Shown here one piece after another: positions 26,798-27,183 of a DNA stretch of 64,000 nucleotides. The stretch lies in NCBI RefSeq assembly GCF_030013205.1, contig NZ_CP122648.1; one strand, 5' to 3'. Positions within the stretch are counted from its first letter, which is position 1. Every line of letters begins with the position of its first letter. The notes under the pieces were generated by a model. That model had not been told where the DNA came from and searched no databases. It saw only the letters and a program-made list of their open reading frames with translations. A program made the translations under genes and the position numbers. Origin of the DNA: Escherichia coli (GTDB lineage Bacteria; Pseudomonadota; Gammaproteobacteria; Enterobacterales; Enterobacteriaceae).

Positions 26798-27183
26798 GCA
26801 AAAAAAGGAACGCGGCCGTCAGATTAAAGCCGCGGGACAAAGTCCATAATTTCCAAGAGTTGTTGAATTTCCCAGCTTTTTTGAAAGCCTTTGTATCATA
26901 CTAACAAGTAAAAAAGGTTTAAATACCAAAATTAACCTATATTTCTGGTTAGCTTTACCATGACAGATGACTTGCTCCTGGAGACATTGGCGCAGCCAGT
27001 CTGTATTGGTGAGTTGTGTATTTATTGTTCGCCGTTTTCTCAGTTTTTTTCTACAGACATAATAAAAAAGACACGTCTCAAGCATGAGCGTGTCTGAGTT
27101 TGTTTTATTTATTTGTCTTGGTAAATTATTGTCGTTACTACCAGGCACTGTTCTGTTAAATAATTGAAGTCAGCGCAAAAAAA

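Follow-up and report, generated by a model that had tools for sequence, protein, structure and literature searches.

The window, a 64-kb stretch of DNA, comes from an Escherichia coli of the porcine ETEC/STEC type in which a lambdoid prophage, now dead, is integrated at the serU 3' end. We put at about 90% the probability that this prophage was truncated by a deletion that joined terL to the host chromosome, and that yodB, which is absent beside it, is missing by way of an earlier and common host allele. Over positions 26000–28200 the window is 100% identical to the chromosome of the porcine E. coli strain ETEC1748, and 16 further complete genomes are near-identical over the same interval, with swine as the source throughout.

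The features of the locus are collected in Table 1. Position 27184 is the 3' end of zinT, a minus-strand gene, beyond which the order continues with msrQ, msrP and hiuH. In K-12 the order is msrQ-zinT-yodB-serU-mtfA-asnT, and the part of it that the initial annotation had given (zinT-yodB-serU) proved correct when checked against K-12.

Table 1. Features of the serU–zinT region, in window coordinates, with the basis for each assignment.
Feature	Position	Strand	Basis or remark
asnT	5842–5917	minus	left of mtfA, then serU
serU, tRNA-Ser(CGA), the prophage attL	6909–6998	plus	ARAGORN
Defective lambdoid prophage remnant, ~19.8 kb	6999–26765		RefSeq annotation of ETEC1748; collinearity with LH85-a
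Chimeric terL ORF, 578 aa	25061–26797	plus	alignment with terL of phi467, M19 and UTME-13 and with host loci L002 and L008
Deletion junction, GAAC, 4-bp perfect microhomology	26762–26765		base-level alignment
Native chromosomal segment of yodB-plus and yodB-less strains	26762–26961		94.5% identity to K-12, 98.6% to L002
Second terminator-like hairpin	26801–26838	minus	GC-rich 7-bp stem, then U7; −16.4 kcal/mol
45-codon ORF, probably not a gene	26960–27097	plus	ORF listing; no Pfam match
yodB-less allele, 222 bp, host DNA	26962–27183		replaces the 995-bp yodB segment of K-12
zinT intrinsic terminator (predicted)	27057–27095	minus	11-bp bulged stem, then U6; fold
zinT (yodA), periplasmic metal-binding protein, intact	27184–27834	minus	Pfam ZinT domain

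The prophage remnant and its junction with the host

The remnant contains a frameshifted integrase, an exonuclease, an IS1 insertion, dicB, ydfABC, repressor and regulator genes, replication genes, RusA, Q, three tRNAs, holins, an endolysin, HNH, a P27-type terS and terL. Throughout, the remnant is collinear at 94–99% identity with the left-hand 20 kb of the prophage that strain LH85-a carries at serU in full length. The integrase (7026–8076) is of the tyrosine type and abuts serU, where the tRNA gene forms attL. Comparison with the attB of locus L002 and with the attR of loci L005 and L008 (the latter from strain CFSAN018748) identifies the 3' 62 nt of serU (6937–6998) as a copy supplied by the phage. 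In the variable arm of serU, a compensatory change from an A-U to a G-C pair relative to prophage-free strains (GGAGTAGGGGCAACTCTACC to GGAGTGGGGGCAACTCCACC) is consistent with these 62 nt being a phage-borne copy left at attL. No toxin genes are found in the remnant in the RefSeq annotation of ETEC1748.

An integrase of this type adjoins serU in 1154 of 5426 genomes, and it is flagged as frameshifted in the full-length LH85-a prophage as well (locus L028, 210–1260); this could mean that many such prophages can no longer move, or else that the frameshift call is a matter of annotation. The prophage tRNAs (Ile/Met, Thr and Gly) sit upstream of the lysis genes. The first of them (22037–22112) is called tRNA-Met (CAT) by ARAGORN and tRNA-Ile by RefSeq, as commonly happens where a CAT anticodon is modified by lysidine.

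The prophage had been taken to end after terL, with the stop codon at 26797. terL is indeed the last phage ORF, but the phage DNA stops inside it, at 26765, 17 codons before the native stop. Homology to phage in terL ceases at 26760–26765 (11 phage records and ~930 E. coli prophages), and homology to the host chromosome begins at 26755–26762 (~5400 genomes). Codons 1–568 of the ORF are phage, and the last 10 codons and the stop (26766–26797) are in-frame host DNA, closed by a chance stop at 26795–26797. Where the native terL encodes 585 aa, the last 17 residues (PEPDLSEHLVSVGIRSL) are here replaced by the host-encoded LKLRREVVNN. Both Pfam domains of the window terL, TerL_ATPase (PF03354, residues 114–268, E = 3e-27) and TerL_nuclease (PF20441, residues 283–563, E = 5e-53), are untouched by the deletion, the latter ending at residue 563, and it is because they are untouched that PGAP annotates the gene as an intact terminase.

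Aligned base by base, with the joint marked by a slash, the phage reads CAATGGCGGTGAAC/CGGAGCCGG, the host GTTGGTGGTGGGAAC/TGAAGTTGCG and the window CAATGGCGGTGAAC/TGAAGTTGCG. The GAAC microhomology lies within a longer, imperfect match (phage GGCGGTGAAC, host GGTGGTGGGAAC), and the two sites share GGYGGTG(G)GAAC. The junction is single and clean, with neither an IS nor filler DNA at the joint. Only 17 of the 5426 complete E. coli genomes carry it, all of them derived from pigs, with ETEC-named and O139:H1 strains among them; as it recurs base for base in all of these, which come from several countries, it is not an assembly artefact. In the junction-bearing sequences NZ_CP122600.1 (ETEC6333), NZ_CP122604.1 and NZ_CP080233.1 (P15-25), the terL junction is found on the strand opposite to the attL/integrase end and some 29 kb from it, an arrangement that indicates a putative inversion within or around the remnant.

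Extent and origin of the deletion

As the initial annotation had stated, no portal, head or tail gene follows terL: the ORFs and the ETEC1748 annotation reveal none between terL and zinT, nor any elsewhere in the ETEC1748 locus and the 20 kb beyond it. The reported lack of an attR-like repeat of the serU 3' end held as well. A 28-nt serU probe, with up to 3 mismatches allowed, detected no second copy in the 64-kb window, its sole match being serU itself at 6971–6998 (0 expected), and BLAST of intact attR sequences against the window matched only 6937–7013. As attR is absent, the element is a truncated remnant and not an excisable prophage.

Intact right ends are available for comparison. attR is present at locus L005, in CFSAN018748 and in LH85-a. 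In the SerU-LTIIb record (KU052038) and in CFSAN018748, the 62 nt of serU that make up attR are followed by a 247-bp host flank, which is absent from the window, and in CFSAN018748 this flank is followed in turn by the sequence that in the window starts at 26762. The host backbone of CFSAN018748 is 99.8–99.97% identical to that of the window; the serU prophage there is a different one, with CDT-I.

The full-length serU prophage of LH85-a (NZ_CP100486.1, 2037892–2078550; ~40 kb) has the same integrase, terS and terL as the window. Its terL is followed by portal, protease, capsid, connector, tail, tape-measure, J, Lom and tail-fibre genes, then by attR and zinT; directly downstream of a native 585-aa terL lies a small ORF, and then the portal, protease and capsid genes. 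The stretch missing from the window corresponds to positions 20282–40751 of the LH85-a locus (L028), or about 20.5 kb. Most of it, ~20.1 kb, is late region; the rest is the last 53 nt of terL, the 62-nt attR and 247 bp of host flank. The size is an estimate, because LH85-a is a relative (94–99% identity) and not the progenitor itself.

Three other prophages were rejected as the undeleted progenitor and served only for comparison of the terL 3' end and attR. M19 adjoins a different tRNA-Ser gene, near hyaA; UTME-13 lies near yecD/aspS and has a Mu-like tail; and the serU prophage of CFSAN018748 has a lambda-type terminase and CDT-I. The host of the last of these is a pig strain whose backbone comes nearest to identity with the window, and in it cdtABC (CDT-I) is located just inside attR (L008, 3259–5359). 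Any cargo at the right end of the window prophage would have gone with the deletion.

Alignment with phage terL, with host loci and with intact serU prophages places the endpoints of the deletion in terL, 53 nt before its end, and in the host, 247 bp beyond attR. With the single GAAC junction and the collinear, intact LH85-a prophage, this bears out the earlier proposal as far as the loss of the late region and attR is concerned. We suggest that illegitimate recombination joined these two sites, with the GAAC present at both providing the microhomology for joining. On this reading the event removed ~20.5 kb, comprising the C-terminal tail of terL, all head and tail genes, attR and the 247 bp of host flank, and left an immobile remnant of ~19.8 kb. 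The terL frame now reads 32 nt into host DNA up to a stop, which is how pipelines come to call an intact 'terminase large subunit'. Because there is only one clean joint, we infer a single recombination event.

The late region could instead have been lost stepwise, through IS-mediated deletions or recombination between tandem prophages, with the microhomology joint as no more than the last step. The IS1 inside the remnant would suit such a history, as would the related strains that have an IS next to zinT or an inversion within the remnant, and the independent remodelling of the serU–zinT interval in Escherichia sp. MOD1-EC7003 (see below). Against it, there is no IS or filler at the joint, for which one 4-bp microhomology junction suffices, and no intermediates occur among the 5426 genomes, where 100% coverage in the 17 junction genomes gives way at once to genomes that match on the host side or the phage side only. 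We consider a stepwise loss improbable, and retain the single deletion as the preferred reading.

The absence of yodB and the zinT–serU interval

yodB, a gene of the cytochrome b561 family, is missing at the locus, as had been observed, and no part of the window matches the K-12 segment that contains it. A search for a displaced copy, which covered the chromosomes of the 17 junction-bearing strains, found none there, a query with the junction and yodB matching one place on each.

The DNA between the junction and zinT consists of the native chromosomal segment and the yodB-less allele listed in Table 1. In intact strains the former starts 247 bp beyond serU, and 26814–26913 within it is invariant across 8 strains. 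The breakpoints of the latter are the zinT stop codon and 26961/26962. This 222-bp allele occurs in 2292 of the 5426 complete E. coli genomes (~42%), including UTI89, and the yodB allele occurs in 3114, including K-12, HS, O157:H7 and O111:H8; together the two account for 5406 of the genomes. Prophage-free strains such as 2017.15.02CC, M505 and UTI89 have serU, 669 bp and zinT, without yodB, and yodB is likewise absent from CFSAN018748 and LH85-a, in which attR is intact. From 26762 to 27183 the window is collinear, at ~98–100% identity, with prophage-free 2017.15.02CC and with CFSAN018748. Since prophage-free and attR-intact strains also lack yodB, its absence reflects a pre-existing host allele and not the prophage deletion. 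Judged by this distribution, the presence or absence of yodB is a species-wide dimorphism older than the deletion.

These data bear directly on the reading that the initial annotation had favored, in which one deletion took the late region, attR and yodB together and 26798–27183 is the scar, with a remnant of a phage gene in it. The K-12 order on which it relied is right, and the late genes, attR and yodB are all missing from the window. But 26762–27183 is undeleted chromosome, 98–100% identical to that of yodB-less strains whether prophage-free or attR-intact, and the yodB-less allele is the one found in 42% of complete genomes. There is moreover only one novel joint, at 26762–26765; a deletion that included yodB would have taken 26762–26961 as well, yet this segment is present; and the 45-codon frame proposed as the phage-gene remnant has no similarity to phage. 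Loss of yodB in the same event is thus extremely unlikely.

The 45-codon frame does exist, at 26960–27097 rather than at about 26962–27099 as first given. The suggestion that it is what is left of the next phage gene is refuted: the frame is part of the host allele and occurs in strains free of prophage, and it shows no similarity to the small ORF after terL in phi467 and has no match in phage records. The allele boundary falls within its ATG, and towards its 3' end it crosses the zinT terminator hairpin. All 8 of the E. coli alleles compared keep the frame open, 7 of 11 substitutions are non-synonymous, and in E. albertii the frame is broken by indels that are not multiples of three. Pfam returned no match for the 45-aa product, no Shine-Dalgarno sequence is obvious upstream by eye, and RefSeq does not annotate the ORF. 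Going by its sequence, the frame is probably not a gene, and it certainly does not derive from the phage. A 109-aa minus-strand ORF (26819–27148) also gave no Pfam match, and an Rfam scan of 26600–27400 (E <= 1) found nothing.

A search of phage records with 26766–27183 returned only the host flank in SerU-LTIIb and a match to one 46-nt terminator-like hairpin, so this stretch is not phage DNA. The hairpin (26802–26847) is a host sequence also present in K-12 and is 83–87% identical to segments of two phage records (KU052038, 1748–1793; ON470595, 32277–32322).

The 222-bp and 995-bp alleles show no similarity to one another by BLAST, and in local alignment they have only the zinT terminator hairpin in common. 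In E. albertii, a diverged homologue of the yodB-less type, with 238 bp readable, lies downstream of zinT (152 identities; score 101 vs 19 ± 6 for shuffled sequence), which hints that the yodB-less form may be old. The outgroups were scanned with a degenerate pattern for the ZinT C-terminus; near zinT in the Salmonella loci no homologue of YodB, MtfA or MsrQ was seen, and the Citrobacter loci ended too soon for the neighbouring genes to be read. In MOD1-EC7003 (L027, 5280–5446), 5 bp separate the zinT stop from base 146 of the serU flank, and a 14-nt serU 3' remnant and an integrase ORF (3890–5116) precede that joint, which is an independent deletion or island junction that remodels the same interval.

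Folding agrees with the earlier view that zinT has its own terminator, which had been placed at about 27051–27090 and is predicted here at 27057–27095. It begins 89 nt past the zinT stop and consists of a hairpin running from 27095 to 27069 and then U6 at 27062–27057 (−17.1 kcal/mol, z = −3.7). On the plus strand a hairpin forms as well, followed by a U-rich tail, and both E. albertii and the K-12 allele have a homologous hairpin just as far from zinT. The second hairpin in Table 1, which lies downstream of yodB in yodB-plus strains, is a putative terminator. A simple promoter/terminator scanner missed both hairpins on account of loop size or bulge, so that folding was needed; the promoter-like sites it reported were at chance level only.

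At the other end of zinT, IS insertions are recurrent in related strains, both at the zinT 5' end and in the zinT–msrQ spacer (equivalent to ~27835–28090 of the window). zinT has been cut to 639 nt by an IS3-family element, and IS1397 and, in EP91B, IS5 are also among the insertions; the regions concerned include 2188–3416 of ETEC6333 (L010) and 7341–8689 of CFSAN018748 (L008). Such insertions around zinT could alter its expression.

Two further and separate ideas concern function. The forms of the zinT–serU interval may be held at intermediate frequency by selection, and not by neutral gain and loss, as a two-allele cassette of yodB versus a 222-bp form that may carry a lineage-specific small ORF or RNA and is perhaps ancestral, given the E. 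albertii homologue. In the pig lineage, the deletion may also have brought the Q-antiterminated late operon to 386 bp from zinT, with the two facing each other head-on; if so, an SOS-induced remnant could transcribe antisense into zinT, changing zinc handling. That both ideas hold is a long shot.

Relation to known prophages

The least credible account of the locus, a naturally short mobile element (satellite- or PICI-like) that has early, lysis and terminase genes only and ends at terL, would fit the ~20-kb length, the tRNA gene with its adjoining integrase and the terminal position of terS and terL, but it is at odds with the collinearity, at 94–99%, with the left half of a full-length prophage of 40 kb that likewise sits at serU, with a terL cut 17 codons short at a point internal in ~930 homologues, with the absence of attR, with the frameshifted integrase and inserted IS1, and with the 247 bp of host DNA gone at the right end, which no site-specific integration removes.

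The value of the truncated-prophage reading is mainly for annotation and epidemiology. The RefSeq entry WP_063084992.1, 'terminase large subunit', is a phage–host chimeric ORF and not an intact gene. Where yodB is missing beside a serU prophage, this is a common host allele and should not be read as collateral damage by the prophage. The junction sequence itself could act as a lineage marker.

The polymorphism of yodB is known in E. coli. The gene is present or absent even between closely related clones and is a clone marker in ST410 (PMC10786849), and a yodB-plus strain has been described in which yodB borders serU, a site where prophages integrate (PMC9729726). The window is no different, and carries the yodB-less allele.

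Several prophages share the integration site. The toxin-converting ones, SerU-LTIIb (KU052038), the Stx1d prophage of RM8082 (PMC9729726) and the CDT-I prophage of CFSAN018748, repeat 62 nt of the serU 3' end as their attR, with the same host flank behind it; their right end is intact and has the toxin cargo near attR, whereas the window remnant has neither. Closer in gene content are the serU prophage of LH85-a and the HK97/P27-type phages phi467 and Evi. The likeness lies in the integrase and attL at serU, in the order of the early genes and in an HNH-terS-terL packaging module that is 96–97% identical to that of the window. These three keep the 585-aa terL and the portal, protease, capsid, tail and tail-fibre genes, none of which the window has, and the LH85-a prophage keeps the attR that the window lacks.

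Rac, Qin and DLP12 of K-12 are cryptic lambdoid prophages that have lost late genes by deletion. Like them, the window remnant is adjacent to a tRNA or other gene and keeps an integrase, early genes of the dicB/ydf type, Q, lysis genes and fragments of packaging genes; like them, it has no morphogenesis genes, has lost one attachment site and is unable to excise. In this comparison, the gene content of the window is taken from the ETEC1748 annotation. The remnant differs from all three in its serU site, in a junction that lies inside terL at GAAC and reaches 247 bp into the host flank, and in an in-frame terL–host chimeric ORF that RefSeq annotates as an intact terminase. It is a case of ordinary cryptic-prophage decay and leaves the understanding of prophage decay unchanged.
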